The notes below the pieces were generated by a model, which was not told where the DNA came from, did no database searches, and was given only the letters and a program-made list of their open reading frames with translations. A DNA stretch of 44,026 nt from positions 1-44,026 of the forward strand of contig MFQY01000053.1 of NCBI GenBank assembly GCA_001783185.1. The letters are read 5' to 3'. The translations under genes were made by a program, and so were the position numbers. Numbering within the stretch: the first letter of the stretch is position 1; every line of letters starts with the position of its first letter. Positions 1,707 through 41,023 of this stretch are shown in pieces. The stretch comes from Candidatus Magasanikbacteria bacterium RIFOXYC2_FULL_40_16. Lineage in GTDB: Bacteria > Patescibacteriota > Patescibacteriia > Magasanikbacterales > UBA922.

Positions 1707-2270
1707 TTAATATTGTCTAAACGACACCGTAGTCGTCAAAGTCACCCTGCTCTGATCTTGAACCTCAGACGAGGGTGTATCAAAAGAAGCAGTAATGGAA
1801 ATCCGCACCGCCTGATGCTGGTCGACTGAATTCAAATGCGTAAAAGTCAAACTCTCTACTTGGATTTTTTCCGAAACAATAATTTGTTCCACCTGTCCCT
1901 CTTTTTTTACATAAAGCCCGCCGTCGTCAACAAAAAAATCTACAAAAGTATAATCTTCTCCGGCAACCGCGTTTCTGACTGTTTCCAAACTTAACTGTCC
2001 GGGACTGGCGTCAAAAACACTGGTTGGCGTATATACACTGGAAGCATGTCTGACTTCCTGCGACATTGTCTCTAAAGCGCTTTTTATATTTCCCAACACC
2101 TCGCTCCGCGCCTGCACATACATATTATTTCTGACCAATTGCGGCAAAAAAGCGGCCACCATCGTCGCGACAATCGCCATAATCATCACATACATAATCA
2201 TCTCTACCAAAGAAAACCCAGCACCACTTTTTTTTGTAAAAAAAAGTGGTGCTGGGTAAACCCTCTTCAT
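1707..2270 (-). CDS. type IV pilin-like pseudopilin (prepilin leader MKRVYPAPLFFTKKSGAG|FSLVEM)
   Basis: Class III signal peptide: G|F cleavage site, Glu at +5 and a hydrophobic helix (IMYVMIMAIVATMVAAF). The ORF track extends to 2345, but the ATG at 2270 is the first start after the upstream half-repeat. The start is uncertain. Confidence 0.7.
   Translation of the reverse strand: MKRVYPAPLFFTKKSGAGFSLVEMIMYVMIMAIVATMVAAFLPQLVRNNMYVQARSEVLGNIKSALETMSQEVRHASSVYTPTSVFDASPGQLSLETVRNAVAGEDYTFVDFFVDDGGLYVKKEGQVEQIIVSEKIQVESLTFTHLNSVDQHQAVRISITASFDTPSSEVQDQSRVTLTTTVSFRQY
2217..2256. repeat. perfect palindrome CCCAGCACCAC-T8-GT-A8-GTGGTGCTGGG inside the pseudopilin leader codons
   Basis: Read directly: 19-nt arms, and the right arm encodes ..SGAG of the prepilin cleavage site. 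A half-copy (AAAAAAAGTGGTGCTGGATAAAC) lies at 2286-2308. Confidence 0.9.
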
Positions 2271-2348
2271 TCTTTTTTTTTTCACAAAAAAAGTGGTGCT
2301 GGATAAACTCCCTCTAATCCCTTTATTTTTGGAAAGAAAAAACATAAA

Positions 2349-3137
2349 CTAATTATTCAAAAAATTTGTCAGATATGCCTGTAAAGATACAGCCTCATTA
2401 TTTCCCCGCTCAAGCCAAGAAACACTCGCGACAATTCTTTTTGTTTTCGGGTCATCAGTCCCCGCCTCGGCAATATCATCATTAACATCCCGATTAACAC
2501 TATATATCGTTATCGTTCTGGTAAAAACGCCGTTAATGGCCGGTTGCGCGACCGCTGTCAAAGTCCATCGTCCATCAACAATCACCGGATAATACGCCAC
2601 ACCGCTTGTTAAAATCGCAATGTCATCCGTCCAATTATTATTTTTTATCGTCCTGACTATTTCTACCCCCTCTTGAGCAAACTGGATCGCTTCGGTTTTT
2701 CTCAAACCCTCATGCATAATTTTATTTGAGAAAGAAATTATTCCATAAATTGAACTGAAAAAAAATAAAGCAATCGCAATCGCAATTATAATTTCCACCA
2801 TGCTAAACCCAGCACCACTTCTTTTTACAAAAGAAGTGGTGCTGGGTAAACCCTCCTCATTTTTTTTTACAAAAGAAGTGGTGCTGGGTAAACCCGCTCT
2901 CTTTTTAAGTTCCCTTAACGCATTACCATTGTGTTTTAATCTTTTTTCTCTCATACGAGCTAATTCTTCTTTATTATACGCTTCATAATATATAAGCTTC
3001 CATGGTTTATGTTGTCTTGTATAAAACTCTCCTTTTTTATTATGATAATCTAATCTCTCTTTCAAATTTTTTGTAGACCCTACATAGATTTTTCCATTTT
3101 TTTCACTCTCTAACAAATAAACATAATACATACTCAT
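2349..3137 (-). CDS. GIY-YIG nuclease domain (N-terminal ~85 aa) in one continuous frame with a type IV pseudopilin (..KRSGAG|FSMVEI..)
   Basis: The N-terminus YYVYLLESEKNGKIYVGSTKNLKERLDYHN...E..R.. matches GIY-YIG (YhbQ/UPF0213-like). It is followed by duplicated GLPSTTSFVK units, then a prepilin motif and a hydrophobic helix. No in-frame ATG lies between the two parts. The ATG at 2860, homologous to the neighbouring pilin's start, is out of frame by 1 nt. Confidence 0.6.
   Translation of the reverse strand: MSMYYVYLLESEKNGKIYVGSTKNLKERLDYHNKKGEFYTRQHKPWKLIYYEAYNKEELARMREKRLKHNGNALRELKKRAGLPSTTSFVKKNEEGLPSTTSFVKRSGAGFSMVEIIIAIAIALFFFSSIYGIISFSNKIMHEGLRKTEAIQFAQEGVEIVRTIKNNNWTDDIAILTSGVAYYPVIVDGRWTLTAVAQPAINGVFTRTITIYSVNRDVNDDIAEAGTDDPKTKRIVASVSWLERGNNEAVSLQAYLTNFLNN
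2808..2846. repeat. palindrome CCCAGCACCACTTCTTTT-TAC-AAAAGAAGTGGTGCTGGG in pseudopilin leader codons
   Basis: Read directly: 18-nt arms. An extra tandem half-copy (ACAAAAGAAGTGGTGCTGGGTAAACCC) lies at 2869-2895. Confidence 0.9.
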
Positions 3138-3146
3138 CCACTATTT

Positions 3147-4043
3147 TTATTGAACAGTCATATCCCCACCAAACACAGCCACAGTCGCGACTCCGTCCGC
3201 GGTAAAAGAAACAATGTCTTTTCCATCAACCGACACATCCAAAGCTTTTGTATTATATCGGCCATCCCGATGAATACATAAAACCGTATCAAACTCATCC
3301 AAAGAATGAGTGTGTATGCGTACAACTTGACTCTCGCCATCAACAACTACTGTCCCCGACCAATCAAATACCGTCTCTCCCGCGTCAAAATAATCCGCCA
3401 TCGTAATAACTTCATCCACATCCACTGTTCCGTCAAAATGCAATTCCAAATCACTGCTTCCTTGTAAACTCCAACTAAGGTCAAAATGTGTATGGCGAGA
3501 ATCAACTTCTCTGGTATCTTCCAATTCAATCGTTCCTTCCAACCCGACCCGTCCCGAAGGTAAAATCTTTATCGTCCGGCTTTCACTGTGATCATCGGCC
3601 AACCGTAAAATTACATCTTCAGTATGTCCTGTCGTCCCGGTCAGACGGTCAAACGCTATCGTATCGCTGGTGCCCTCCCAAATATCAGTGTATTCAACGC
3701 TTGTCGGGAAATATGTAATTTCATTTTCCGGGTCCAATGGATTCCAATCAAACCCTTTAAAAAGGGCATAAAAACCAGTCTCAAAATGAACGCCATACTG
3801 TTCATTATCTTCCGATGAAACCGTTTTTTCCGCCGCCAATTGCAAAGTGGCAATCACATCGCTGACTGAAGTGCTTAATTCCAATCTTTTTTGAAAAGAC
3901 CGGTAGCTAATAAGACCGGCCGTCGCTAAAATCATAATCGTGGCGACAACCAATAAAATTTCAATCAGTGAGAACCCAGCACCATTTTTTTCCCAAAAAA
4001 AGTGGTGCTGGATAAAACCTTTTTTATTTAAGTATTTAAACAT
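3147..4043 (-). CDS. type IV pilin-like pseudopilin, GspH/FimT-like with long C-terminal extension (leader ..EKNGAG|FSLIEIL)
   Basis: Prepilin motif with Glu at +5 and a hydrophobic helix LLVVATIMILATAGLISY. The ORF track starts at 4067; the second ATG at 4043 is equally possible. Confidence 0.7.
   Translation of the reverse strand: MFKYLNKKGFIQHHFFWEKNGAGFSLIEILLVVATIMILATAGLISYRSFQKRLELSTSVSDVIATLQLAAEKTVSSEDNEQYGVHFETGFYALFKGFDWNPLDPENEITYFPTSVEYTDIWEGTSDTIAFDRLTGTTGHTEDVILRLADDHSESRTIKILPSGRVGLEGTIELEDTREVDSRHTHFDLSWSLQGSSDLELHFDGTVDVDEVITMADYFDAGETVFDWSGTVVVDGESQVVRIHTHSLDEFDTVLCIHRDGRYNTKALDVSVDGKDIVSFTADGVATVAVFGGDMTVQ
3976..4011. repeat. near-perfect palindrome CCAGCACCA-T7-CCC-A7-GTGGTGCTGG in pseudopilin leader codons
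   Basis: Read directly. It is the third member of the same family, with a one-nucleotide bulge. Confidence 0.85.
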
Positions 4044-4120
4044 AAAAACATACAAGCATTTAAACATTACAATATGTTTGTATGTTTAAATGTTTAGATG
4101 TTTACATGCGCGTATTATAC

Positions 4121-4975: not shown

Positions 4976-5000
4976 ACATTTAGATTTAAGATTAAAGATT

Positions 5001-5030
5001 CCAGCCTACGGCTGGTCCGCCTTTGGCGGA
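5001..5030. repeat. double-hairpin element CCAGCC-nnnn-GGCTGG-TCCGCC-nnnn-GGCGGA, copy 1
   Basis: Read directly in the ssb leader region. The stems are identical to the copies at 20657-20686 and 30971-31000; the loops differ. Confidence 0.85.
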
Positions 5031-5649: not shown

Positions 5650-5764
5650 AGTAATATTAAAGTATTTTGTTTAGATTCACGTTTTTTGCCTATCCTTGGG
5701 ATCGACCGATACACAAAAACCGCAAATAATAGTGAAAATAATATATCATTTTGGCGTAAAAATG

Positions 5765-5923
5765 TCAACCCCGTCACCATTCTGGCATAGGTTGCGGGTA
5801 ATACAAAAACAGAGCCGCGAGGTCCCGACCGTGGTCGAGGATCCTCGGTTGGACGCAATCGGGACGACTCCGTCTTTGTGTTTTGGGAAACAAAAGATGT
5901 TTTCAGAAAGGTGACGGGGTCAA
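5765..5923. mobile_element. MITE-like element with ~20-bp terminal inverted repeats (TCAACCCCGTCACCATTCTG / CAGAAAGGTGACGGGGTCAA), copy A
   Basis: The terminal repeats and an internal core (AGCCGCGAGG...GACTCCGTCTTTGT.TTT) are shared with 30595-30711. This copy has an extra nested TCCCGA...TCGGGA hairpin at 5823-5864. Confidence 0.7.
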
Positions 5924-9081: not shown

Positions 9082-10185
9082 ATGTTTTTCAACCCTTTTC
9101 CACACGCAATCGGACTGGACATAGGCGACCTGACAATAAAAATGGTCCAGCTTGATAATATCTCCCGGAGAAAAAATCATCCGTCATTTAGGTTGGTAAA
9201 CGCGCGCAGTACCCAACTTCCGCACGGATTGATTGTTAATGGTGAATTGGAAAAACCGGAAGCGGTCAGAAAATATCTTCTCCATTTACTTGAAAAAAGG
9301 GGCGACCGAAAAGATAAATACTACAAATCCCCATGGGTGGTTGCATCCATTCCCGACAGATATGGTTTTATAAAACTAATCCAACTGGAAAAAGAACCCG
9401 AAGACATCATAGACGAGGATATTATCATCGCTTCGCAAAAGCATGTGCCTTTTCAGGAAAATGATTACTACCTTGATTGGCAAATCGTGCCCAGCCACAA
9501 TCATGGAACCGAATATACCAATGTTTTACTGGCGAGCATTCCAAAAAATATTGCCAATATGTACACCTACCTGCTGGAAAGCGTAGGCTTAATCGTGGTG
9601 GCGCTGGAACTTGGCGCTCTCTCAACCGTCAGAACCATGATAACGGCCAATAAACATTATGATAGCGAAGGTCGTGGCATCCTGCGTCTTGGCTCAACCG
9701 AATCAACCCTGACCGTGTATGACCACGACCATGTGCAGTTCAGTAAATCGCTGAATTATTCCGGAGAAGTTTTAACAGCCGCCATCGCCCAAAATCTGCA
9801 TATCACCTACGAAGAAGCGGAGATGAAAAAGAAGGCCTACGGTCTGGAATACACAAAAAATAAAGTCTGGCCGATATTGGCGGAGCAAACCGACAAGTTA
9901 ATCGTTGAAATAGAACAAATTTTGGATTTTTACTACACCCATTTTCCTTTTACCAATAAAATCACCAAGATAGTGATGTGTGGGGGCGGTTCAACTCTGA
10001 AAAATCTGGATAAGGCGCTGACGGCAAAATTAAAAATAGAAACAAAAACCGGCGATGTCTGGAAAAATCTTTCTCCATCCAAACCGATTAATATGGATAC
10101 GGAAAAATCACTGCGTTTCGCCAAAGCAATCGGTTTAGCCTTGCGCGCGGCCGGCAATCCGTTTTTTGATAATAACTATATATAA
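9082..10185 (+). CDS. pilM: type IV pilus assembly protein PilM (actin-like ATPase fold)
   Basis: The N-terminus GLDIGDLTIKMVQL and the CGGGS motif are typical of PilM/FtsA-like proteins. It is followed by PilN/PilO-like genes. Confidence 0.8.
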   Translation: MFFNPFPHAIGLDIGDLTIKMVQLDNISRRKNHPSFRLVNARSTQLPHGLIVNGELEKPEAVRKYLLHLLEKRGDRKDKYYKSPWVVASIPDRYGFIKLIQLEKEPEDIIDEDIIIASQKHVPFQENDYYLDWQIVPSHNHGTEYTNVLLASIPKNIANMYTYLLESVGLIVVALELGALSTVRTMITANKHYDSEGRGILRLGSTESTLTVYDHDHVQFSKSLNYSGEVLTAAIAQNLHITYEEAEMKKKAYGLEYTKNKVWPILAEQTDKLIVEIEQILDFYYTHFPFTNKITKIVMCGGGSTLKNLDKALTAKLKIETKTGDVWKNLSPSKPINMDTEKSLRFAKAIGLALRAAGNPFFDNNYI

Positions 10186-15681: not shown

Positions 15682-15764
15682 TCACCCTCCCGACTTAGTC
15701 GGGATGCTCCCAAATGCTGAGCCGAAAGCGAAGTCCCGATCTCACATCGGGAAGCTAGTGGCCC
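15682..15764 (-). pseudogene. degenerate tRNA-Ala-like remnant interrupted by TCCCGA..TCGGGA hairpins
   Basis: Minus strand: GGGCCACTAGCT-[TCCCGATGTGAGATCGGGA..]-CTCAGCATTTGGGAGCA-[TCCCGACTAAGTCGGGA]-GGGTG.. The acceptor and D-arm are recognisable, the anticodon arm is replaced by a hairpin and the T-arm has decayed. Confidence 0.6.
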
Positions 15765-18843: not shown

Positions 18844-21000
18844 TTATCCGCGTTTTACGAATGCTAAAACCACTGCGCCGAGTTTTTTTATAAATCTCAC
18901 CACAAAAAATCCGCGCGCTTTAACAGACAAACCGATTAAAATTGAAGTTAGCCCACCGGCGGTGGCGATCAAGTATTTTTCCGCCGTGTCTGTTTGACTG
19001 GCTTCTGCCACAGCCTCGCCCTCGCCGGCCGTATTTAACAATTCAATATCCTCGCTGGAACGAGGAAGCAACTGATAACCAGCCGACCTCTCAATTAAAA
19101 TCCCTTTAACAGCGATCCTGTCCCCTGTTTCAAAAGAACTGCTGTCTATATTTGCGTTTTCCTTGAAAGAAACTTTGATTTCCTCGGCGCCGTCATCCAA
19201 ATAAATATATGAACTTTTCTTTTCCGTCACTTCGCCCTCAATCCGCAAAAAACTCCCCTCATATTTTTCATCTATCTCGCTTATTTTCAATGCAATAACT
19301 TCCGGCTCGCTTTTGCCGACGACTTTAATATCTTCTTTGTTCTTTATCTTTATTCTGGTCTCGCCATAGGCCTCGGATATTTCCCCGGCGACTTCAACTT
19401 CATCGCCGATTGCCAACTCCGGAAAATCTTTGCTATACATATATATCTGCGCTCCGCCGTCTTGGTTGGAAATATAAAAATACTGCGTGCCAAAAACCCC
19501 CGGCAACACCGTCACCACTCCTTTTGTTTTTACTCTGGAACCAACGGCGCGGTCGCGAAGTTCAGCCAATCCGGTTTCAACTGTCGCGCTGTATTTTACG
19601 CCGGCAACCGCGGTCAACGCCGGAGCGGAAAAACTGTTTTTTGCCCCCGGAGTAATTTTCGTCGTCCACGTCCATTGATTGGAATCATTTCTGGCAAAAC
19701 CTGCCCCCTCCGTCACGCTTGAATAATCTATTTCATCTATTATGGCGTTATCACCGGCTAACAATCTGGCCGAATCCATATCATTATTAAGGGCAATTTT
19801 TGTTTCCCATTTTCCAAAAACCAAATACTCCCCCGCTTTTATAATTGTATCCTTCGGAAATTTATACGGACTGGAACCACCATCCTCGTCATCCAGCTTT
19901 AAGCCATACAAATTAAAATCTTCTTCCGTCGGATTATATAATTCTATCATCTCCGTGGTGTCCGAACCGGCCGGATTGGGCAAAATTTCTGTGATAATAA
20001 TTTTTACATCCCCAATTTTAACCAACTCTTTCACTTCGCTTTCCACGACAACTTTTTTCGTGCTGGTTGAAATTAAAAAAGCGGTTGTCGTCGTTTGATT
20101 ATTTTGAGTTTTACTTTCCGACACGCCAATTTCACCCTCAACATAAATAACGTTCGGCTTGCCTTTGGTAATTTCCTGCGTGAGAGCAAAATCAACATCA
20201 TCTTTATCAGTATCCTGTCCGTCGTAAACTCTCGCCGTCGCGAGCGGATCGTCCGCTTTTGGCGCGTTGTCATTTTTATTGCCGTCGTCCCAATTGCCGT
20301 AAGACATTTGGTCTATCAGCCCGCCCGCCGGGTCAAACAACTTAATTATATCGCCCGTGTTATTCAAATTCCCTTTTGGTTTTTCCAAAACAAAAAAACC
20401 GTTCGCCAAAGTTGTTCCGCCCAAAATGCTTTTACGCACGGAGCCGTCTTCAATCCACCAACCGGACAAATCAATACTATATATAGTGGTATTATACAAT
20501 TCTAAAAACTCCACTTCGCCGTCAGCCGGGTCGCTGACGAATTCATTTATTACCACTGAACCAATATCATAACCCAATAATTCCGGCTCGCTTTGAATAA
20601 TTTCGATATTGTTTTGAACTGGCGGTGGTTCAGATTCTTGTTCATTGTTAATTGTTCCAGCCGAAGGCTGGTCCGCCTCTGGCGGAGATTGTTCATTGTC
20701 GCCTACTGTAATCAAATCTTTTAATCCATCAAAAGTAACCTGTCCGATGCCGGATACATCCATAATTTCTTCTATTGTTTCAAACGGACCATTCAGCTCG
20801 CGGTAATCAATAATCGCTTGGGCTTTTACCGCTCCAATCCCGGGCAGTAATAAATCCAGCGTTCCCACATCAGCTGTGTTAATGTTTATTTTAAGGGAAT
20901 CGTCAGCCAAAACATTTTGCATAAATAAAAAAATACCGCCTAAGATCATTAGCAATAAAAATAGTTTTTTCATATAAAAAAATAAATTAATTATGGACAT
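18844..21000 (-). CDS. ComEA-like HhH DNA-binding surface protein with two lamin-tail domains, an OB-fold and a C-terminal membrane anchor
   Basis: The signal peptide is followed by ININTADVGTLDLLLPGIGAVKAQAIIDYRELNGPFETIEEIMDVSGIG, a ComEA helix-hairpin-helix. The lamin-tail-like segments are VINEFVSDPADGEVEFLELYN and ITEILPNPAGSDTTEMIELYN. The probable start is the ATG at 20973 (MKKLFLLL). Confidence 0.7.
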   Translation of the reverse strand: MSIINLFFYMKKLFLLLMILGGIFLFMQNVLADDSLKININTADVGTLDLLLPGIGAVKAQAIIDYRELNGPFETIEEIMDVSGIGQVTFDGLKDLITVGDNEQSPPEADQPSAGTINNEQESEPPPVQNNIEIIQSEPELLGYDIGSVVINEFVSDPADGEVEFLELYNTTIYSIDLSGWWIEDGSVRKSILGGTTLANGFFVLEKPKGNLNNTGDIIKLFDPAGGLIDQMSYGNWDDGNKNDNAPKADDPLATARVYDGQDTDKDDVDFALTQEITKGKPNVIYVEGEIGVSESKTQNNQTTTTAFLISTSTKKVVVESEVKELVKIGDVKIIITEILPNPAGSDTTEMIELYNPTEEDFNLYGLKLDDEDGGSSPYKFPKDTIIKAGEYLVFGKWETKIALNNDMDSARLLAGDNAIIDEIDYSSVTEGAGFARNDSNQWTWTTKITPGAKNSFSAPALTAVAGVKYSATVETGLAELRDRAVGSRVKTKGVVTVLPGVFGTQYFYISNQDGGAQIYMYSKDFPELAIGDEVEVAGEISEAYGETRIKIKNKEDIKVVGKSEPEVIALKISEIDEKYEGSFLRIEGEVTEKKSSYIYLDDGAEEIKVSFKENANIDSSSFETGDRIAVKGILIERSAGYQLLPRSSEDIELLNTAGEGEAVAEASQTDTAEKYLIATAGGLTSILIGLSVKARGFFVVRFIKKLGAVVLAFVKRG
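20657..20686. repeat. double-hairpin element, copy 2, inside the ComEA-like CDS (encodes ..PPEADQPSAG..)
   Basis: Same stems as the copies at 5001 and 30971. On the coding strand it is flanked by the direct repeat ACAATGAACAA. The distance from repeat start to repeat start is 51 nt, so the reading frame is kept. Confidence 0.85.
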
Positions 21001-30541: not shown

Positions 30542-30594
30542 CGCGTTCTCCTTTAATTGGGTTTATGACACCATAACATAAATTGTAATTTATT

Positions 30595-30711
30595 TCAACC
30601 CTGTCACCATTCTGACATTAATTTGAGGTAAAATAAAAACTAAGCCGCGAGGCGACTCCGTCTTTGTATTTTAGAAAAGAATAGACATTTTTAGAAAGGT
30701 GACAGGGTCAA
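30595..30711. mobile_element. MITE-like element, copy B (same terminal repeats and core as 5765-5923, without the nested hairpin)
   Basis: TCAACCCTGTCACCATTCTG ... AGCCGCGAGGCGACTCCGTCTTTGTATTTT ... TAGAAAGGTGACAGGGTCAA. Confidence 0.7.
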
Positions 30712-30770: not shown

Positions 30771-30799
30771 GCAAAACAAAAAACCATGCTACGCGCATG
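30771..30799 (-). terminator. terminator after the tRNA-fMet/tRNA-Gly unit
   Basis: On the minus strand, stem CATGC-GCGTA-GCATG is followed by GTTTTTTGTTTTG. Confidence 0.5.
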
Positions 30800-30840
30800 A
30801 CTTTTTAAATACTCCCTCACCCCGACCAAGTCAGGATTCG

Positions 30841-30917
30841 TGGAGCGGCAGACCGGATTCGAACCGGCGACCTTCTCCTTGGCAAGGAGACGTTCTAGCC
30901 AACTGAACTACTACCGC
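30841..30917 (-). tRNA. tRNA-Gly(GCC), CCA encoded
   Basis: GCGGTAG TA GTTC AGTTGGCTA GAAC G TCTCC TTGCCAA GGAGA AGGTC GCCGG TTCGAAT CCGGT CTGCCGC T CCA. Confidence 0.9.
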
Positions 30918-30970
30918 ATGTTTGATTTTATTGTAATTATTATAACGGATACTTTATTGATATTCTAGCC

Positions 30971-31000
30971 CCAGCCAGAGGCTGGTCCGCCTTTGGCGGA
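30971..31000. repeat. double-hairpin element, copy 3
   Basis: CCAGCCAGAGGCTGGTCCGCCTTTGGCGGA. Confidence 0.85.
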
Positions 31001-31002
31001 AA

Positions 31003-31048
31003 CTGTAAGGGCACCTTACCCCGCCGGACGGCGGGGAACTACTACCGC
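31003..31048 (-). repeat. orphan tRNA-Gly 5' fragment (nt 1-12, GCGGTAGTAGTT) fused to the hairpin module CCCCGCCGTCCGGCGGGG-TAAGGTGCCCTTAC-AGTT
   Basis: The 12 nt at 31037-31048 are identical to the 5' end of the intact tRNA-Gly(GCC) about 120 nt downstream. The module is shared with 39199-39247 and 37812-37845. Confidence 0.8.
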
Positions 31049-31053
31049 ATTAG

Positions 31054-31127
31054 TTGCGAGGCCCGGATTTGAACCGGGGACCTTCTGGTTATGAGCCAGA
31101 CGAGCTGCCAGACTGCTCCACCTCGCT
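31054..31127 (-). tRNA. initiator tRNA-fMet(CAU)
   Basis: AGCGAGG TG GAGC AGTCTGGCA GCTC G TCTGG CTCATAA CCAGA AGGTC CCCGG TTCAAAT CCGGG CCTCGCA A. It has a 1:72 mismatch (A x A) and an A11:U24 pair as in bacterial initiators, and it is close to E. coli tRNA-fMet (recalled from memory). Confidence 0.8.
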
Positions 31128-31251
31128 ATATGTGCATTAATATAACACAAAAAAATAAATATTGCAAGAGTGTGTATTGACAACCCCGAATTTCTTTGAT
31201 TAACTTGGGTGGGTATTTTCATCCGCTCTTTCTAGTTCAAAGGAGGCTGTT

Positions 31252-31512
31252 GTGATTTGGCAAGACATCCTAATAAGCATAGCCAGCGCTATTTCTTGTA
31301 TTTCTCTTATCCCTCAAGTTTACTCCGGCTTTAAAGAAAAATCCGGCCCGATAAAATACTTGACCTCCGTGCCAACTTTCGCCGGCCTATTCGCGATCTC
31401 TTTGGCCATGTGGACATTGTCGTTGTTTTTATCAAGCACTATCGCGGCAATTTCCGGAGTTTTATGGTTTTTGCTGTTTATTCAAAGAGTAATATACAGA
31501 CAAAAATCATGA
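31252..31512 (+). CDS. SemiSWEET / PQ-loop family 3-TM membrane protein (GTG start)
   Basis: 86 aa with three transmembrane segments and a PQ motif in TM1 (SLIPQVYSGF). Shine-Dalgarno AAAGGAGG. Confidence 0.55.
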   Translation: MIWQDILISIASAISCISLIPQVYSGFKEKSGPIKYLTSVPTFAGLFAISLAMWTLSLFLSSTIAAISGVLWFLLFIQRVIYRQKS

Positions 31513-37811: not shown

Positions 37812-37845
37812 GTAAGGGAACATTTATCCCGATTTTACATCGGGA
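37812..37845 (-). repeat. third copy of the hairpin module (TCCCGATGTAAAATCGGGA-TAAATGTTCCCTTAC), downstream of tRNA-Val
   Basis: Same two-hairpin module as at 31003-31036 and 39199-39235, but not preceded by a recognisable tRNA fragment. Confidence 0.7.
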
Positions 37846-38311: not shown

Positions 38312-39010
38312 TTATGCCTTTTCCCCCCAAAGAACGGCATCAATCCTTTTCAAGGATACATCCGAACCATTACCTGTAAACAGGGCTACAATTTCTATCC
38401 ACAATGCTTCAGCATTGGCTTGACCAACCTCCAAGCGCTCAACAATTTCTTTAATGAAATAGTCCTTGGGTATGTATTGACCCTTCATTTGAAGACCATC
38501 CGCGGTAAGACAAGCCACATCTTCTTCATCAGAAAAGATACAACCAAATGTCAAAACCAATTTGGTTATGGCAAGATATGTACGAAGTAACGCCGGAGCA
38601 ATTTCTCCAAGCAACGGACTTGGGGCTATCCTTTCATACGAATTCAAACTACCAATTGATAGGCCATGTTGTACCGCGGGGGCAAGCCCGGCCAACACAC
38701 TTTGCGCGGCGGTCAGAACTTGTCTTTGTTGATTCGCGACTAATACTTGCGACAAACGAAGATCTTCTATGCCCTCTTGGTCCAGTTCGCAAGCAGGGTC
38801 AATTGCATCCTCAATAATTGCCTGAACTTCAATGAAGTTTTTTCTATTTTCTTCCTGCACAAGTGCTTCATCAATTATTTTTTTACAGGCTTCGCAAGTC
38901 GCTACATGAATAGAGAACGACTGTATCTGCAATGTTACTTCATCCTGGATACCTTTATCATCCGGGTTTAAAAAAAGTTCCCTCAATAGATCACAAAATG
39001 TTTTTGCCAT
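38312..39010 (-). CDS. hypothetical protein (232 aa), GC-richer
   Basis: ORF only, starting 39 nt downstream of tRNA-Pro. No family recognised. Confidence 0.5.
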   Translation of the reverse strand: MAKTFCDLLRELFLNPDDKGIQDEVTLQIQSFSIHVATCEACKKIIDEALVQEENRKNFIEVQAIIEDAIDPACELDQEGIEDLRLSQVLVANQQRQVLTAAQSVLAGLAPAVQHGLSIGSLNSYERIAPSPLLGEIAPALLRTYLAITKLVLTFGCIFSDEEDVACLTADGLQMKGQYIPKDYFIKEIVERLEVGQANAEALWIEIVALFTGNGSDVSLKRIDAVLWGEKA

Positions 39011-39048
39011 CGTCTTTTTCCTTTTCTAAGTGGATTTATAACCACACG

Positions 39049-39122
39049 TCGGAGTGAAAGGACTTGAACCTTCGACCCTCTGGTCCCAAACCAGATGCTC
39101 TAGCCAACTGAGCTACACTCCG
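39049..39122 (-). tRNA. tRNA-Pro(UGG)
   Basis: CGGAGTG TA GCTC AGTTGGCTA GAGC A TCTGG TTTGGGA CCAGA GGGTC GAAGG TTCAAGT CCTTT CACTCCG A. Confidence 0.9.
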
Positions 39123-39198
39123 ATATTTTATTGAATTTTATAATACAAATTTTTTAGTTGCGCTTACTTTGATTGTATATTAAAGCGAAGTTGTCCCA

Positions 39199-39247
39199 AC
39201 TGTAAGGGAACACTTACCCCGACCTTGCGTCGGGGAGCTACACTCCG
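39199..39247 (-). repeat. orphan tRNA-Pro 5' fragment (nt 1-12, CGGAGTGTAGCT) fused to the hairpin module CCCCGACGCAAGGTCGGGG-TAAGTGTTCCCTTAC-AGTT
   Basis: The 12 nt at 39236-39247 are identical to the 5' end of the intact tRNA-Pro about 115 nt downstream. Confidence 0.8.
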
Positions 39248-39261
39248 ATATAAAATTTTTG

Positions 39262-39942
39262 TTAAATCTGTTTTTTCAATCCGTCAATCCATCCAATTAA
39301 TTTATAAAAAAGTTTGGTGTTATATACTCTTAAATGGATAGTCCCGTATTTTAATATATTTTTACTTTTCCCCTTGCTCGCTGAACTTAAAGATCTCGAC
39401 ACTTTCATAAATTGATCTTTTTTTATTCCTGTCACTCTTGACCAATACTCTACAGCTTTATTACCAGATAAATTTCTATGTAAAATAACTTGTACTCTCA
39501 TTTTATCTTCTTCAACCTTACAAATCTCTCTAAAAAAACGCATCATCATCATAACCATAGTTGAATCAGAATTTGTAAAATCTACACACTTCCAAATACT
39601 TCCTTCCGCGCCTTTTTTATATCCCTCTCCCCAATATAATGAAATCCCCACAAGAAAAAGGTCATTTTCTCTTATTTTTTTTACCTCTTTAGCGGCCTTT
39701 TCACGTATTTCTTTTGCCCTCTCCTTGGCAAAAACTGTTTGTTCTTTGTTTCTACGAATTAATGCTTTCACACTTTTCTCATATACCCTATTTTCTATTC
39801 TAGTTTTCGCTTTTTTTGACAAAACTATATCTCTCAACCAATAAGAAAGTGTGCTTTTGGGGATTTTTAACGATTTACTTATTTCATTATAACTTTTCCC
39901 CAACTTGCGAAGTTTTATCGCATTTATTTTTTCTACCTTCAT
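39262..39942 (-). CDS. HTH plus single-motif LAGLIDADG-like homing-endonuclease-like protein (free-standing)
   Basis: N-terminal HTH (KSYNEISKSLKIPKSTLSYWL). DLFLVGISLYWGEGYK resembles the LAGLIDADG (L..G....GEG) motif. The size and the basic C-terminus fit the family. This is a motif-level call only. Confidence 0.45.
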   Translation of the reverse strand: MKVEKINAIKLRKLGKSYNEISKSLKIPKSTLSYWLRDIVLSKKAKTRIENRVYEKSVKALIRRNKEQTVFAKERAKEIREKAAKEVKKIRENDLFLVGISLYWGEGYKKGAEGSIWKCVDFTNSDSTMVMMMMRFFREICKVEEDKMRVQVILHRNLSGNKAVEYWSRVTGIKKDQFMKVSRSLSSASKGKSKNILKYGTIHLRVYNTKLFYKLIGWIDGLKKQI

Positions 39943-40004: not shown

Positions 40005-40306
40005 TGCCGAGGGCGAGGATTGAACTCGCGACACGTGGATTTTCCAATTTATTATCTTGTGTTTCCACAAGGATCGGACTATATCATCACCCCGACTCAG
40101 TCGGGGGTTGGGCGCTAATGCGAGATTATTGTTGGGGCTCACTCGCTAGTCTCTACACCTTCCCCGATACTTTTACCCATCGGGGCTTGGCTCGGGATTA
40201 TCCGCTAGTCGACGGACTTCCCCGAATTCACCCAATTTTCTCATCTTAATTTACATTAAGAGGGACCGAAATTCAGTCCACTGCTCTACCACTGAGCTAC
40301 CTCGGC
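40005..40306 (-). tRNA. tRNA-Phe(GAA) interrupted by a group I intron (exons 40275-40306 and 40005-40044)
   Basis: Exon 1: GCCGAGG TA GCTC AGTGGTA GAGC A GTGGA CT. Exon 2: GAAAA TCCAC GTGTC GCGAG TTCAATC CTCGC CCTCGGC A. Joined, they give a canonical 72-nt tRNA-Phe. Confidence 0.85.
40045..40274 (-). ncRNA. group I intron (IC3-like), 230 nt, inserted between U33 and G34
   Basis: The 5' exon ends in U, which pairs as U-G in a P1 helix (GGACU with GGUCC at intron nt 8-12). The intron ends in G. The core strings AAUCCCGAGCCAAGCC.. and ..GGAAGGUGUAGAGACUAGCGAGUGAGCCCC.. and ..AUAGUCC.. resemble the cyanobacterial tRNA-Leu intron core (recalled from memory). Confidence 0.8.
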
Positions 40307-40340
40307 TTTTTCGTGATAGACAGACTCACAATAAAGTGAG

Positions 40341-40416
40341 TGGTGGACCCTACCGGATTTGAACCGGTCACCTCTTCCATGCCATGGAAGCATTCTACCA
40401 AATGAACTAAGGGCCC
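40341..40416 (-). tRNA. tRNA-Ala(GGC), CCA encoded
   Basis: GGGCCCT TA GTTC ATTTGGTA GAAT G CTTCC ATGGCAT GGAAG AGGTG ACCGG TTCAAAT CCGGT AGGGTCC A CCA, with G3:U70. Confidence 0.9.
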
Positions 40417-40419
40417 GTC

Positions 40420-40683
40420 TTATTTTAATTTAATAATTTTATTTTCAATAATATCTTCTATAATATCTCGTCTTTTTAATTTTTTAATCTTATATTCAAT
40501 GCATCTAGCCTGTTTTATATCATTATAAATTTGAAAAAATTTTAATTCCCATTTACCCTTATTTTTTGTCGCGATATTTTTACCGGAATTATGTTCAGCC
40601 ATTCTTCGATCTAAATCAATCGTTGACCCTATATAATACTTGCCCGCTAATTCGCTATATATAATATACAGATAACCTACCAT
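40420..40683 (-). CDS. small GIY-YIG nuclease-family protein (87 aa)
   Basis: MVGYLYIIYSELAGKYYIGSTIDLDRRMAEHNSG...; paralogue of the N-terminal domain of 2349-3137. Its stop codon lies 3 nt from the tRNA-Ala 5' end. The start is taken at 40683; the longer ORF reads into the pseudo-tRNA. Confidence 0.75.
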   Translation of the reverse strand: MVGYLYIIYSELAGKYYIGSTIDLDRRMAEHNSGKNIATKNKGKWELKFFQIYNDIKQARCIEYKIKKLKRRDIIEDIIENKIIKLK

Positions 40684-40694
40684 AATATTATTTA

Positions 40695-40784
40695 CCAGCC
40701 ACCTTCCCGATGTGGCATCGGGACGTTCTACCAAATGCTTTTAGTCCCGATGAGCCAAAGGCGACATCGGGAAACTAAGGGCCC
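40695..40784 (-). pseudogene. decayed tRNA-Ala(GGC)-like copy carrying two TCCCGATG..CATCGGGA hairpins, truncated in the T-loop by the GIY-YIG gene
   Basis: Minus strand: GGGCCCTTAGTT-[TCCCGATGTCGCCTTTGGCTCATCGGGACTAAAAG]-CATTTGGTAGAAC-G-[TCCCGATGCCACATCGGGA]-AGGTGGCTGGTAAAT.. The intact gene reads GGGCCCTTAGTTCATTTGGTAGAATG[anticodon arm]AGGTGACCGGTTCAAAT. Confidence 0.7.
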
Positions 40785-41003
40785 GTTGATATGCCTCAAC
40801 ATAATACTAAAAATTTCACAAAAAGTCAAGGCGCGACATCATATTGATAACAATTATATCACACGCGGTTTTAAACAAACAAATCAAAACCACCCGCTCA
40901 AGAATCTGTGTGGGCGGTTTGTGTCTTGCCAGCTACACCGGCATCATCACCCGTCGCAATTTTTTTGAGCATATAATTTTTAAAGACTGAGTTAATATCT
41001 TTT

Positions 41004-41023
41004 CAGAAAGGTGACGGGGTTGA
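41004..41023. repeat. solo right-end repeat of the MITE-like family (CAGAAAGGTGACGGGGTTGA)
   Basis: Matches the right terminal repeats at 5904-5923 and 30692-30711. No left end was recognised. Confidence 0.6.

Follow-up and report, generated by a model that had tools for sequence, protein, structure and literature searches.

The 44-kb stretch of DNA analysed here (44,026 nt of contig MFQY01000053.1 of a Candidatus Magasanikbacteria bacterium, referred to as the window) contains tRNA genes that are preceded by truncated copies of tRNA 5′ parts interrupted by palindromic elements. These dead partial copies are called pseudo-halves or 5′ orphans below. Seven tRNA genes were called by ARAGORN, and an eighth, tRNA-Phe(GAA), which is interrupted by a group I intron (~40300->40000, 93 bits), was added by Rfam. 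Four of the eight, namely Gly(GCC), Pro(UGG), Ala(GGC) and Ala(TGC), are preceded by a pseudo-half leader, and no such leader was found at tRNA-Gly(UCC), Val, Met or Phe of the window. All tRNAs of interest lie on the minus strand. Matching contigs come from metagenome-assembled genomes of the candidate phyla radiation (CPR)/Patescibacteria from the Rifle aquifer (e.g. GCA_001784365.1, MFQS01000054). The same protein and locus recur in at least 12 contigs, each assembled independently, and the structures are therefore not assembly artefacts.

Anatomy of the truncated tRNA copies

In a preliminary description of this DNA, the first 12 nt of tRNA-Gly(GCC) and of tRNA-Pro(UGG) were reported to be recopied upstream of each gene, followed in both cases by a common two-hairpin module. 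Both observations were confirmed. The exact copies comprise 13 nt and lie 118 nt (Gly) and 112 nt (Pro) upstream, with the modules at 31035->31005 and 39234->39202, respectively; the chance of meeting a given 12-mer within ~500 nt is ~3e-5 per tRNA (500/4^12). Identity with the tRNA, said to end at position 12/13, is in fact only interrupted there and resumes after the module (nt 14-17 and 18-25 in Gly, nt 14-19 in Pro), so that the right description is a truncated tRNA pseudogene with palindromic elements inserted. The components of the two loci, in minus-strand order, are as follows.

tRNA-Gly(GCC) locus
31053..31127, minus strand: initiator-type tRNA-Met(CAT) (ARAGORN)
31048->31036, minus strand: exact copy of tRNA-Gly nt 1-13, GCGGTAGTAGTTC, 4 nt downstream of tRNA-Met (k-mer scan)
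31005..31035, minus strand: two-hairpin module at tRNA position 12/13-13/14, hairpin 1 CCCCGCCG-TCC-GGCGGGG, hairpin 2 GTAAGG-TGC-CCTTAC
31001..31004, minus strand: AGTT, copy of tRNA-Gly nt 14-17
30971..31000, minus strand: double hairpin TCCGCC-AAA-GGCGGA / CCAGCC-TCT-GGCTGG resembling repetitive extragenic palindromes (REP), inserted at nt 17/18, repeat family D7
30963..30970, minus strand: GGCTAGAA, copy of tRNA-Gly nt 18-25, the final tRNA-derived block of the pseudo-half
30918..30962, minus strand: AT-rich spacer (leader) containing TATAAT, between pseudo-half and intact tRNA
30917->30841, minus strand: intact tRNA-Gly(GCC) (ARAGORN; Rfam tRNA, 68.9 bits)

tRNA-Pro(UGG) locus
39247->39235, minus strand: exact copy of tRNA-Pro nt 1-13, CGGAGTGTAGCTC, 14 nt past the stop of ORF 39262-39942
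39202..39234, minus strand: two-hairpin module at tRNA position 12/13-13/14
39196..39201, minus strand: AGTTGG, copy of tRNA-Pro nt 14-19
39123..39195, minus strand: spacer opening with GACAACT, which forms a snap-back hairpin with AGTTG
39122->39048, minus strand: intact tRNA-Pro(UGG) (ARAGORN; Rfam)

Collinear matching to the tRNAs gives the order 1-13, module, 14-17, 30-nt double hairpin, 18-25 for Gly, and 1-13, module, 14-19 for Pro. Both loci are thus dead 5′ copies (nt 1-25 of Gly, nt 1-19 of Pro) and not a dedicated fragment-plus-hairpin device. The 30-nt double hairpin of the Gly copy is an independent dispersed repeat found three times in the window, the other copies being located at 4999-5030 and 20656-20686. 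The last of these (CCAGCC-N3-GGCTGG, TCCGCC-N3-GGCGGA), with TTGTTCATTGT at both sides, lies in frame within a 718-aa ORF (18844..21000, minus strand) featuring LTD, HHH and OB-fold domains.

The idea that such fragments might precede other tRNAs held for part of the set, as a k-mer scan of each tRNA against the whole window uncovered a third case at tRNA-Ala(GGC). A fourth, diverged one was found at tRNA-Ala(TGC), and none at the other four of the eight.

tRNA-Ala loci
40694..40784, minus strand: tRNA-Ala(GGC) pseudo-half, directly downstream of a conserved promoter (40829->40801)
40420..40683, minus strand: stand-alone GIY-YIG nuclease gene (87 aa), with the Ala(GGC) pseudo-half before it and the intact tRNA after it
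40341..40416, minus strand: intact tRNA-Ala(GGC), 3 nt past the stop codon of the GIY-YIG gene
15688..15764, minus strand: fourth, diverged Ala-like pseudo-half, ORF-less, before tRNA-Ala(TGC) (15654->15581)

In the Ala(GGC) pseudo-half, nt 1-12 (40784->40773) are separated by a 35-nt hairpin insert at 12/13 from nt 13-24 (40737->40726), the anticodon arm is replaced by TCCCGATG-CCA-CATCGGGA, and a T-stem remnant, AGGTGGCTGGT, follows (about nt 44-54). The Ala(TGC) pseudo-half has the same two-hairpin layout: GGGCCACTAGCT is followed by one hairpin at 12/13 and by a D-loop-like segment, and a second hairpin stands where the anticodon arm would be. It sits between a perfect sigma-70-type promoter (TTGACA-17-TATAGT, 15807->15779) and its tRNA. 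Its tRNA-derived parts agree with the adjacent tRNA at only 9/12 positions and look closer to the Ala(GGC)-type leaders of GIY-YIG cassettes. This leader hints at shared descent of a mobile tRNA-like leader.

Empty sites in relatives, the comparison proposed in the preliminary description, were found for Pro and Ala(GGC) in a syntenic locus of a sister genome (L057; neighbouring 226-aa protein 77% identical), which carries tRNA-Ala(GGC), an intron-containing tRNA-Phe, the 226-aa ORF, tRNA-Pro and tRNA-Val. At tRNA-Ala(GGC), L057 features neither the orphan nor the GIY-YIG gene. Because the same conserved promoter that directly abuts the intact tRNA in L057 abuts the pseudo-half in the window, it is the pseudo-half that, by sequence comparison, demonstrably occupies the ancestral position next to this promoter. 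At tRNA-Pro, L057 contains neither orphan nor module, and the tRNA begins 19 nt after the stop codon of the upstream ORF, close to where the orphan begins in the window (14 nt). The ancestral position is ambiguous here: the orphan is placed as the tRNA is in L057, yet the spacer, over its final ~32 nt before the intact tRNA, is similar to the native tRNA-Pro upstream region of L057 (p ~0.01), a resemblance that would fit a tandem duplication with junction filler. An odd tRNA-like gene (tRNA-Tyr(ATA) by ARAGORN), situated 6 nt after tRNA-Ala(GGC) in the sister locus (L057:9535-9609), is missing from the window.

At tRNA-Gly of a sister species (L148, where a flanking protein shows 77% identity) an orphan is present and is built differently. 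It comprises nt 1-16, a 58-nt composite hairpin inserted at 16/17, nt 17-27, a replaced anticodon arm, nt 43-50 and a snap-back GCGACC, and is followed by a 24-nt leader homologous to the window Gly leader, of which the last ~20 nt are conserved between the two species. The D-loop variant of each Gly orphan matches that of its own tRNA (GGCTAGAA in the window, GGTAGAA in L148), which suggests recurrent origin or gene conversion.

The -10-like motif previously noted before the intact tRNAs is present in both cases (TATAAT- or TATAAA-like), but the Gly spacer contains no two-hexamer match, and that of the Pro spacer (TTGGGA-16-TACAAT, 9/12, ~1.0 expected) is at chance level. The consensus promoters are located ahead of tRNA-Met, in the Gly case, and ahead of the pseudo-halves at the two Ala genes. 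As the promoter-like site at 31167->31139, before tRNA-Met, is the sole consensus promoter of that strand in the region, tRNA-Met, the Gly pseudo-half and tRNA-Gly probably form one transcription unit. No terminator-like site and no U-tract was found on the minus strand at 30780-31260, 38980-39330 or 40300-40900, and the proposal that the hairpins at the modules act as terminators was abandoned. With promoters upstream and terminator-like sites missing, the pseudo-halves are most simply seen as 5′ leaders of pre-tRNAs. Today pseudo-half and hairpins are most likely merely a co-transcribed, structured leader, which would be removed by RNase P cutting at nt 1 of the real tRNA, as expected from established knowledge of this enzyme. 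In minimum-free-energy folds of orphan-to-tRNA transcripts, orphan nt 1-7 are not engaged in local hairpins and are predicted to pair with the live tRNA along its 3′ acceptor strand; a competing fold is possible.

Several neighbouring features deserve mention. The intron of tRNA-Phe(GAA), a gene not called by ARAGORN, lies in the anticodon loop (RF00028, 40283->40055, minus strand) and is kept in the sister locus (L057, ~9645-9945). Directly after this tRNA, in the window as in L057, ORF 39262-39942 (minus strand) encodes a 226-aa protein with an N-terminal helix-turn-helix (HTH) domain and an uncharacterised C-terminal domain; its family comprises 293 homologues (50-77% identity) across Patescibacteria, many on ~1-kb contigs. 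A LAGLIDADG homing endonuclease, considered on account of an ‘LYWGEGYK’ motif, was discarded for this ORF, since only the N-terminal HTH was detected and support from PDB and PHROG was absent. The ORF was also rejected as part of an element, the family being widely conserved in Patescibacteria and present at the empty site as well. Between tRNA-Pro and tRNA-Val, a 232-aa ORF (38312-39010, minus strand) matches no family and is missing in L057, which has 84 nt between these tRNAs. A dispersed repeat of ~130 nt with TCAACCCCGTCACC..TTCTGA (families D8, D10 and D13) occurs at 5762-5923, 30592-30711, 40994-41020 and L148:4255-4420, with one copy just downstream of tRNA-Gly(GCC) and another upstream of the Ala(GGC) promoter.

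A dispersed module and recurrent orphans in related genomes

The module is 31-33 nt long and consists of two hairpins, CCCCG..CGGGG and GTAAG..CTTAC. A degenerate pattern gave 2 matches in the window against 0.00 in 100 shuffles. A third copy without tRNA fragment, also reported in the preliminary description, was verified at 37844->37812. It forms the core of a longer repeat situated between tRNA-Val and its conserved terminator, a stretch that is missing after tRNA-Val in L057:

37799..37862, minus strand: 64-nt ‘class A’ repeat, outer helix CCCCCTC/GGGGGAG around module 37812-37844

A scan of JGI metagenomes yielded 90 loci, from which GC-rich chance matches were subsequently removed, leaving ~18 module variants at ~31 distinct sites in related groundwater metagenome bins. 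Five of these are D-arm sites of tRNAs, as against ~26/31 sites unrelated to tRNA. The latter include the 64-nt class A context (9 sites with unrelated flanks), a multi-copy mosaic of GTCATTGCGAGG type, loops of terminator-like hairpins, and the long hairpin of L001 described below. Hairpin-1 stems vary by compensatory changes (GCC/GGC, GAC/GTC, GAT/ATC). With the looser hairpin-1 pattern CCCGAY..RTCGGG, 10 stems were found in the window against 0.04 expected; this stem is a general hairpin ‘word’ of the genome, also present in terminators and group I intron stems. In all tRNA-linked cases the module is oriented as the tRNA. TAGYT precedes the insert in tRNA contexts only, where it corresponds to tRNA nt 8-12, and a shared target sequence for module insertion was dismissed as the class A, B and C flanks lack TAGYT.

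Among 185,579 species genomes (one per species, 596 Gb), the module gave 34 matches, in other phyla only and including 2 Saccharibacteria; these apparently arose by chance, being mostly in coding or GC-rich DNA. No match was found in IMG/VR. A known RNA family was rejected, Rfam being empty at the modules, the class A repeat and the L001 long hairpin described below (at gathering thresholds and at E <= 10). A tRNA intron or ribozyme was likewise set aside, as no such model matched at the modules and the interrupted tRNA copies lack a 3′ half; the tRNA-Phe group I intron, in contrast, was detected with 93 bits. On this comparative evidence, the module is a lineage-specific, dispersed REP-like repeat that is not tRNA-specific.

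About 80 nt beyond the right window end, an RNA-like long hairpin of ~175 nt (L001:6549-6722; z-score -7, ending in a T-run) bears the module as a side branch at a tRNA D-arm-like site (CAGCTAGT, then module, then AGTTGC). It is identical in at least 8 metagenome contigs.

Module-linked loci of like design were found at tRNA-Ile(UAU) (L090), tRNA-Lys(UUU) (L118) and tRNA-Val(UAC) (L132). At Ile and Val the order is promoter, tRNA nt 1-12/13, module, remainder of the D-loop, spacer and intact tRNA, while at Lys an extra hairpin splits the copy after nt 5. The tRNA sequence after the module matches each tRNA's own D-loop (Pro AGTTGG, Val AGCTGG, Lys AGCTGGTAGA, Ala 12 nt). A scan of all tRNAs in the fetched loci added a Thr orphan (nt 1-12, then a different hairpin), a tandemly repeated His orphan (nt 1-56, then T-loop hairpins), and 3′ orphans downstream of tRNA-Asn, Gln and Lys; loci with 3′ orphans are L107, L083, L049 and L090. 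In L090 the tRNA-Ile unit is bracketed by two orphans of the same tRNA, a 5′ one (nt 1-34) and a 3′ one (nt 37-76), as though a resident copy had received, within its anticodon loop, a complete gene together with its processing stem. Leader and trailer inverted repeats lengthen the acceptor stem of the intact tRNA by 12-20 bp at L090:8270-8480 and L107 (~9895-9967).

Orphans without D-arm insert (L048, L054, L146) indicate that duplication and D-arm hairpin insertion are separable. The break point proposed at 12/13 is recurrent: D-arm inserts lie there (or at an ambiguous 13/14) in 8/9 cases from 8 tRNA species, but the total extent of the copies varies (nt 19, 25, 34, 48, ~54, ~64). Orphans occur at ~5/19 CPR tRNA contexts (about a quarter to a third), a count that leaves out tRNAs for which a locus was fetched, and at 0/7 tRNAs in loci of other phyla, one Saccharibacteria locus included.

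GIY-YIG nuclease genes adjacent to tRNA genes

The ORF between the Ala(GGC) pseudo-half and its tRNA matches the Pfam GIY-YIG domain (E 1.1e-16) and consists of the catalytic domain only, with no recognisable DNA-binding domain. Its closest solved structure is UPF0213 protein BH0048 (PDB 1ZG2, E 2e-6), which places it with the stand-alone prokaryotic Slx1-like clade (PMC1564403). Homologues from other CPR lineages are 47-64% identical. In the window and at 4/4 homologue loci with downstream DNA assembled, the gene lies at most 9 nt upstream of a tRNA gene or overlaps it; the contigs of two others (L052, L053) end at or inside the cassette, so that any downstream tRNA falls outside the contig. 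The tRNAs concerned are:

L045: tRNA-Pro(CGG)
L048: tRNA-Ala(GGC)
L054/L055: tRNA-Pro(CGG)
L049/L050: tandem pair, two GIY-YIG copies before an Ala-like tRNA

A pseudo-half is present upstream of the ORF at all homologue loci except L045. In these leaders, an exact copy of tRNA nt 1-27 comes first, then a hairpin that substitutes for the anticodon arm, then nt 44 to ~58. The hairpin is a perfect palindrome of 7-8 bp, YCCGACG-NNN-CGTCGGR, of the same type as module hairpin 1 (compare CCCCGACGTAAAGTCGGGG in L132 with TCCCGACGTAACGTCGGGG in L048). The tRNA-derived GGAGGT of the variable/T-stem region may serve the gene as a ribosome-binding site, given its position at Shine-Dalgarno distance from the GIY-YIG start, and the gene appears to be expressed from the tRNA promoter.

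Fusions of such GIY-YIG domains to TrmH-type tRNA methyltransferases have been noted by Dunin-Horkawicz et al. 2006 (PMC1564403), and are echoed at L045:3538-4353, where a SpoU/TrmH-type methyltransferase gene ends 2 nt before the GIY-YIG gene, itself followed by tRNA-Pro(CGG). A second GIY-YIG domain of the window (3137->2886, minus strand), with 36% identity to the first, continues by read-through into a type-IV-pilin-like gene and adjoins hairpin-forming duplicated leaders of pilin-like genes (1707-4067, minus strand). In three consecutive pilin-like genes, the start of the mature part (K-S-G-A-G-F) is preceded by its own inverted complement, giving a perfect hairpin of ~19 bp, the upstream arm of which is tandemly duplicated. 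A phage origin of the GIY-YIG gene was not retained, as tblastn was blank in 50,697 phage records and no relative was present in IMG/VR.

Origin of the pseudo-halves and comparison with known systems

In the tiny genomes of CPR/Patescibacteria most tRNA genes exist as a single copy, and DNA landing inside one of these would be expected to kill the cell. At a quarter to a half of the tRNA genes sampled here, the live tRNA persists beside a dead 5′ (or 3′) partial copy packed with palindromes and sometimes a nuclease gene, which looks like the scar of recurrent DNA insertion into essential tRNA genes without killing them. We see an even chance that the truncated 5′ copies are scars of insertion or duplication, colonised by REP-like hairpins, in which a GIY-YIG-type cassette is implicated. 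First, an insertion or partial duplication would leave a dead 5′ part upstream and regenerate a complete tRNA 45-75 nt past the last tRNA-derived block. Second, REP-like palindromes would enter the D-arm of the dispensable copy, preferring 12/13(-13/14), with other hairpins settling there or in other loops. Third, a tRNA- or hairpin-directed, homing-endonuclease-like GIY-YIG cassette would be the most likely agent of the first step, because a small nuclease gene of Slx1/UPF0213 type occupies the gap both at Ala(GGC) in the window and at homologous loci of other lineages. The Gly and Pro versions, which have no ORF, would be by-products or derivatives of such a cassette. Comparative anatomy suggests the first two steps, and the argument for the third is recurrent adjacency.

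Several observations weigh against this account. No GIY-YIG remnant was detected in the Gly and Pro spacers by tblastn with 22 homologues (all E > 0.1), which makes the tie of the ORF-less cases to the nuclease circumstantial; local alignments between these spacers and the ORF's 3′ end were likewise non-significant (p = 0.26 and 0.59). L045 has GIY-YIG gene and tRNA, but a 5′ orphan would not fit in there. That the copied blocks are exactly identical could reflect recent origin, gene conversion or selection. Random colonisation would not predict the recurrence of 12/13, which would call for a preference for this site or for a putative ancestral cassette common to the cases. Finally, the Gly and Pro spacer ends are similar to each other (p ~0.008), which fits a common element as well as a common promoter function, the spacers of the remaining cases being unrelated.

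The main rival, which we hold to be unlikely, is replication slippage or template switching at tRNA hot spots without any nuclease, GIY-YIG genes merely settling in the resulting leaders. Such a process would yield partial tandem duplications whose junctions snap back, along with hairpin insertions copied from a template. Snap-back inverted repeats of the last tRNA-derived bases (AGTTG-GGA-CAACT in Pro, AGCTGG-A-CCAGCT in L132, AGGTCGC-TG-GCGACCT in L148) and tandem arrays of orphan units (L146, L107, L055) are as expected from such a process, as are the inverted duplications of their own 5′ ends in the window's pilin-like genes and the native-like end of the Pro spacer. Slippage leaves unexplained, however, why GIY-YIG homologues of 47-64% identity occupy the same place between pseudo-half and tRNA across lineages, and why inserts prefer 12/13.

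Site-specific insertion at 12/13, as first envisaged, agrees with the presence of insertions relative to the sister genome and with the recurrence of this position, but not with the nesting of the module inside a longer pseudo-copy. A 12-13-nt target-site duplication was rejected for this reason, identity resuming after the module, and in view of the variable extents, the orphans with intact D-arm and the 3′ orphans. What could be kept of this idea is a discrete small element of module, spacer and promoter that inserts at 12/13, carrying or generating a replacement for nt 1-13, the normal tRNA being released by RNase P. In both the Gly and the Pro case, 13-nt direct repeats surround ~112-118 nt with like spacer ends; the orthologous Pro site is empty in L057; 12/13 is used in 8 orphans; the module is oriented as the tRNA wherever the two are linked; and the whole unit, in its predicted minimum-free-energy folds, can be taken for a tRNA whose D-arm carries a large insert. 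The model is weakened by the nested architecture, since the duplicated block measures 19-64 nt with the module within it. The present sample already suggests that the stretch from module to tRNA lacks conserved ends and that the length of tRNA sequence duplicated does not depend on where the module sits. Spacers elsewhere are unrelated, most module copies occur in non-tRNA contexts without duplication, and the Pro spacer end resembles the native upstream region, all of which makes a single element quite improbable.

It is tempting to speculate further that the Slx1/UPF0213-like GIY-YIG protein is a structure-directed nuclease that mobilises both its cassette and, in trans, the hairpin repeats, although we regard this extension as improbable. 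The targets of such an enzyme would be cloverleaf or cruciform DNA, cleaved where stems meet loops (e.g. tRNA position 12/13, anticodon arm or T-loop), which would make it a GIY-YIG counterpart of the REP/RAYT partnership. Insertions into tRNA genes would then be ‘self-healing’: the event would duplicate the 5′ part of the gene, RNase P would trim the dead copy, and gene conversion would keep the pseudo-half identical.

A selected function of the pre-tRNA leader, be it as an acceptor-strand competitor tuning RNase P, a decoy for tRNA-directed nucleases or a binding platform, is very unlikely. The predicted pairing of the free orphan nt 1-7 with the 3′ acceptor strand would suit it, as do the presence of leaders at 4/8 window tRNAs and of Gly orphans in two species, each matching its own tRNA variant. 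Nevertheless, leaders are missing at the orthologous Pro and Ala sites of a close relative, the two Gly orphans differ wholly in content and extent, the pseudo-half at Ala(TGC), with 9/12 identity, is no longer complementary to its tRNA, and the module is found mostly away from tRNAs. A role of the hairpins as intrinsic terminators or as insulators for the preceding gene (tRNA-Met, ORF 39262-39942), or an origin as att remnants of a classical integrase, is barely credible: GC-rich hairpins do lie directly behind the upstream gene and tRNA genes are classical integration sites, but the minus strand shows neither U-tract nor terminator-like match, window ORFs of at least 150 aa contain no integrase, transposase or reverse-transcriptase domain, the repeats are only 112-355 nt apart, and the orphans are 5′, not 3′, fragments.

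If an active mechanism is at work in the formation of such insertion scars beside live tRNAs, it would be a new, cost-free way for selfish DNA to use the cell's strongest and most conserved promoters, and a mirror image of classical tRNA integration at 3′ ends. There are practical consequences as well: the repeats break assemblies, several contigs ending exactly at cassettes; tRNA annotation is confused; and the structures could pass for integration scars or novel RNA motifs.

The module shares with RAYT-mobilised REP, BIME and REPIN sequences its short, GC-rich, imperfect palindromes, many dispersed copies, mosaics and lineage specificity, and REPINs are known to form mosaics or clusters by insertion into or beside one another (Bertels & Rainey 2011, PMC3116915). 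Outside tRNA contexts, however, the conserved 5′ GTAG/GGAG tetranucleotide is not found next to the module hairpin, and no RAYT or IS200-like Y1 transposase domain was detected in window ORFs of at least 150 aa. Also unlike REP and REPIN sequences, copies lie within tRNA pseudogenes and structured RNA, and a hairpin repeat lies in frame in an ORF. In this respect they recall the palindromic elements of Rickettsia (RPE), for which insertion into protein genes and the tmRNA gene is known (PMC1458961). As in RPE, palindromes are tolerated inside genes, a stable-RNA gene included, with one here in frame in the 718-aa ORF. The elements described here are shorter, at 30-64 nt compared to ~100-150 nt, and among tRNA sequences are found only in dead partial copies, never in a working gene.

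Integrase-mediated integration into tRNA genes, according to what Williams reportedly described in 2002, leaves partial tRNA duplications (att sites). The likeness extends to a direct repeat of part of the tRNA flanking the inserted DNA, the regeneration of an intact tRNA, and break points in tRNA loops. Differences are the mirror polarity, with the 5′ fragment upstream, the variable duplication ends, and the insert of 112-355 nt, not multi-kb; window ORFs of at least 150 aa contain no integrase domain. Among homing systems, the free-standing GIY-YIG homing endonuclease SegB of phage T4 is located in a tRNA cluster, and the Allomyces atp6 element is an endonuclease insertion that carries a replacement gene end. 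Common to these and to the present case are an endonuclease ORF (GIY-YIG here) in an essential gene region, presence/absence polymorphism, and host function saved by a duplicated segment. At Ala(GGC) the nuclease ORF is present in the window and missing in L057, whereas the Gly and Pro copies are without ORF or detectable remnant. Unlike I-TevI and Seg proteins, the 87-aa protein is a catalytic domain alone with no DNA-binding domain, nearest to UPF0213 BH0048, and its endonuclease activity is a prediction. Searches of open-access full text brought up nothing relevant on GIY-YIG genes with tRNAs in CPR/Patescibacteria, or on palindromes inserted into tRNA genes of CPR. REP-like repeats, homing-type nuclease genes and partial tRNA duplications are each of a known kind, and it is their combination, polarity and frequency here that appear undescribed.

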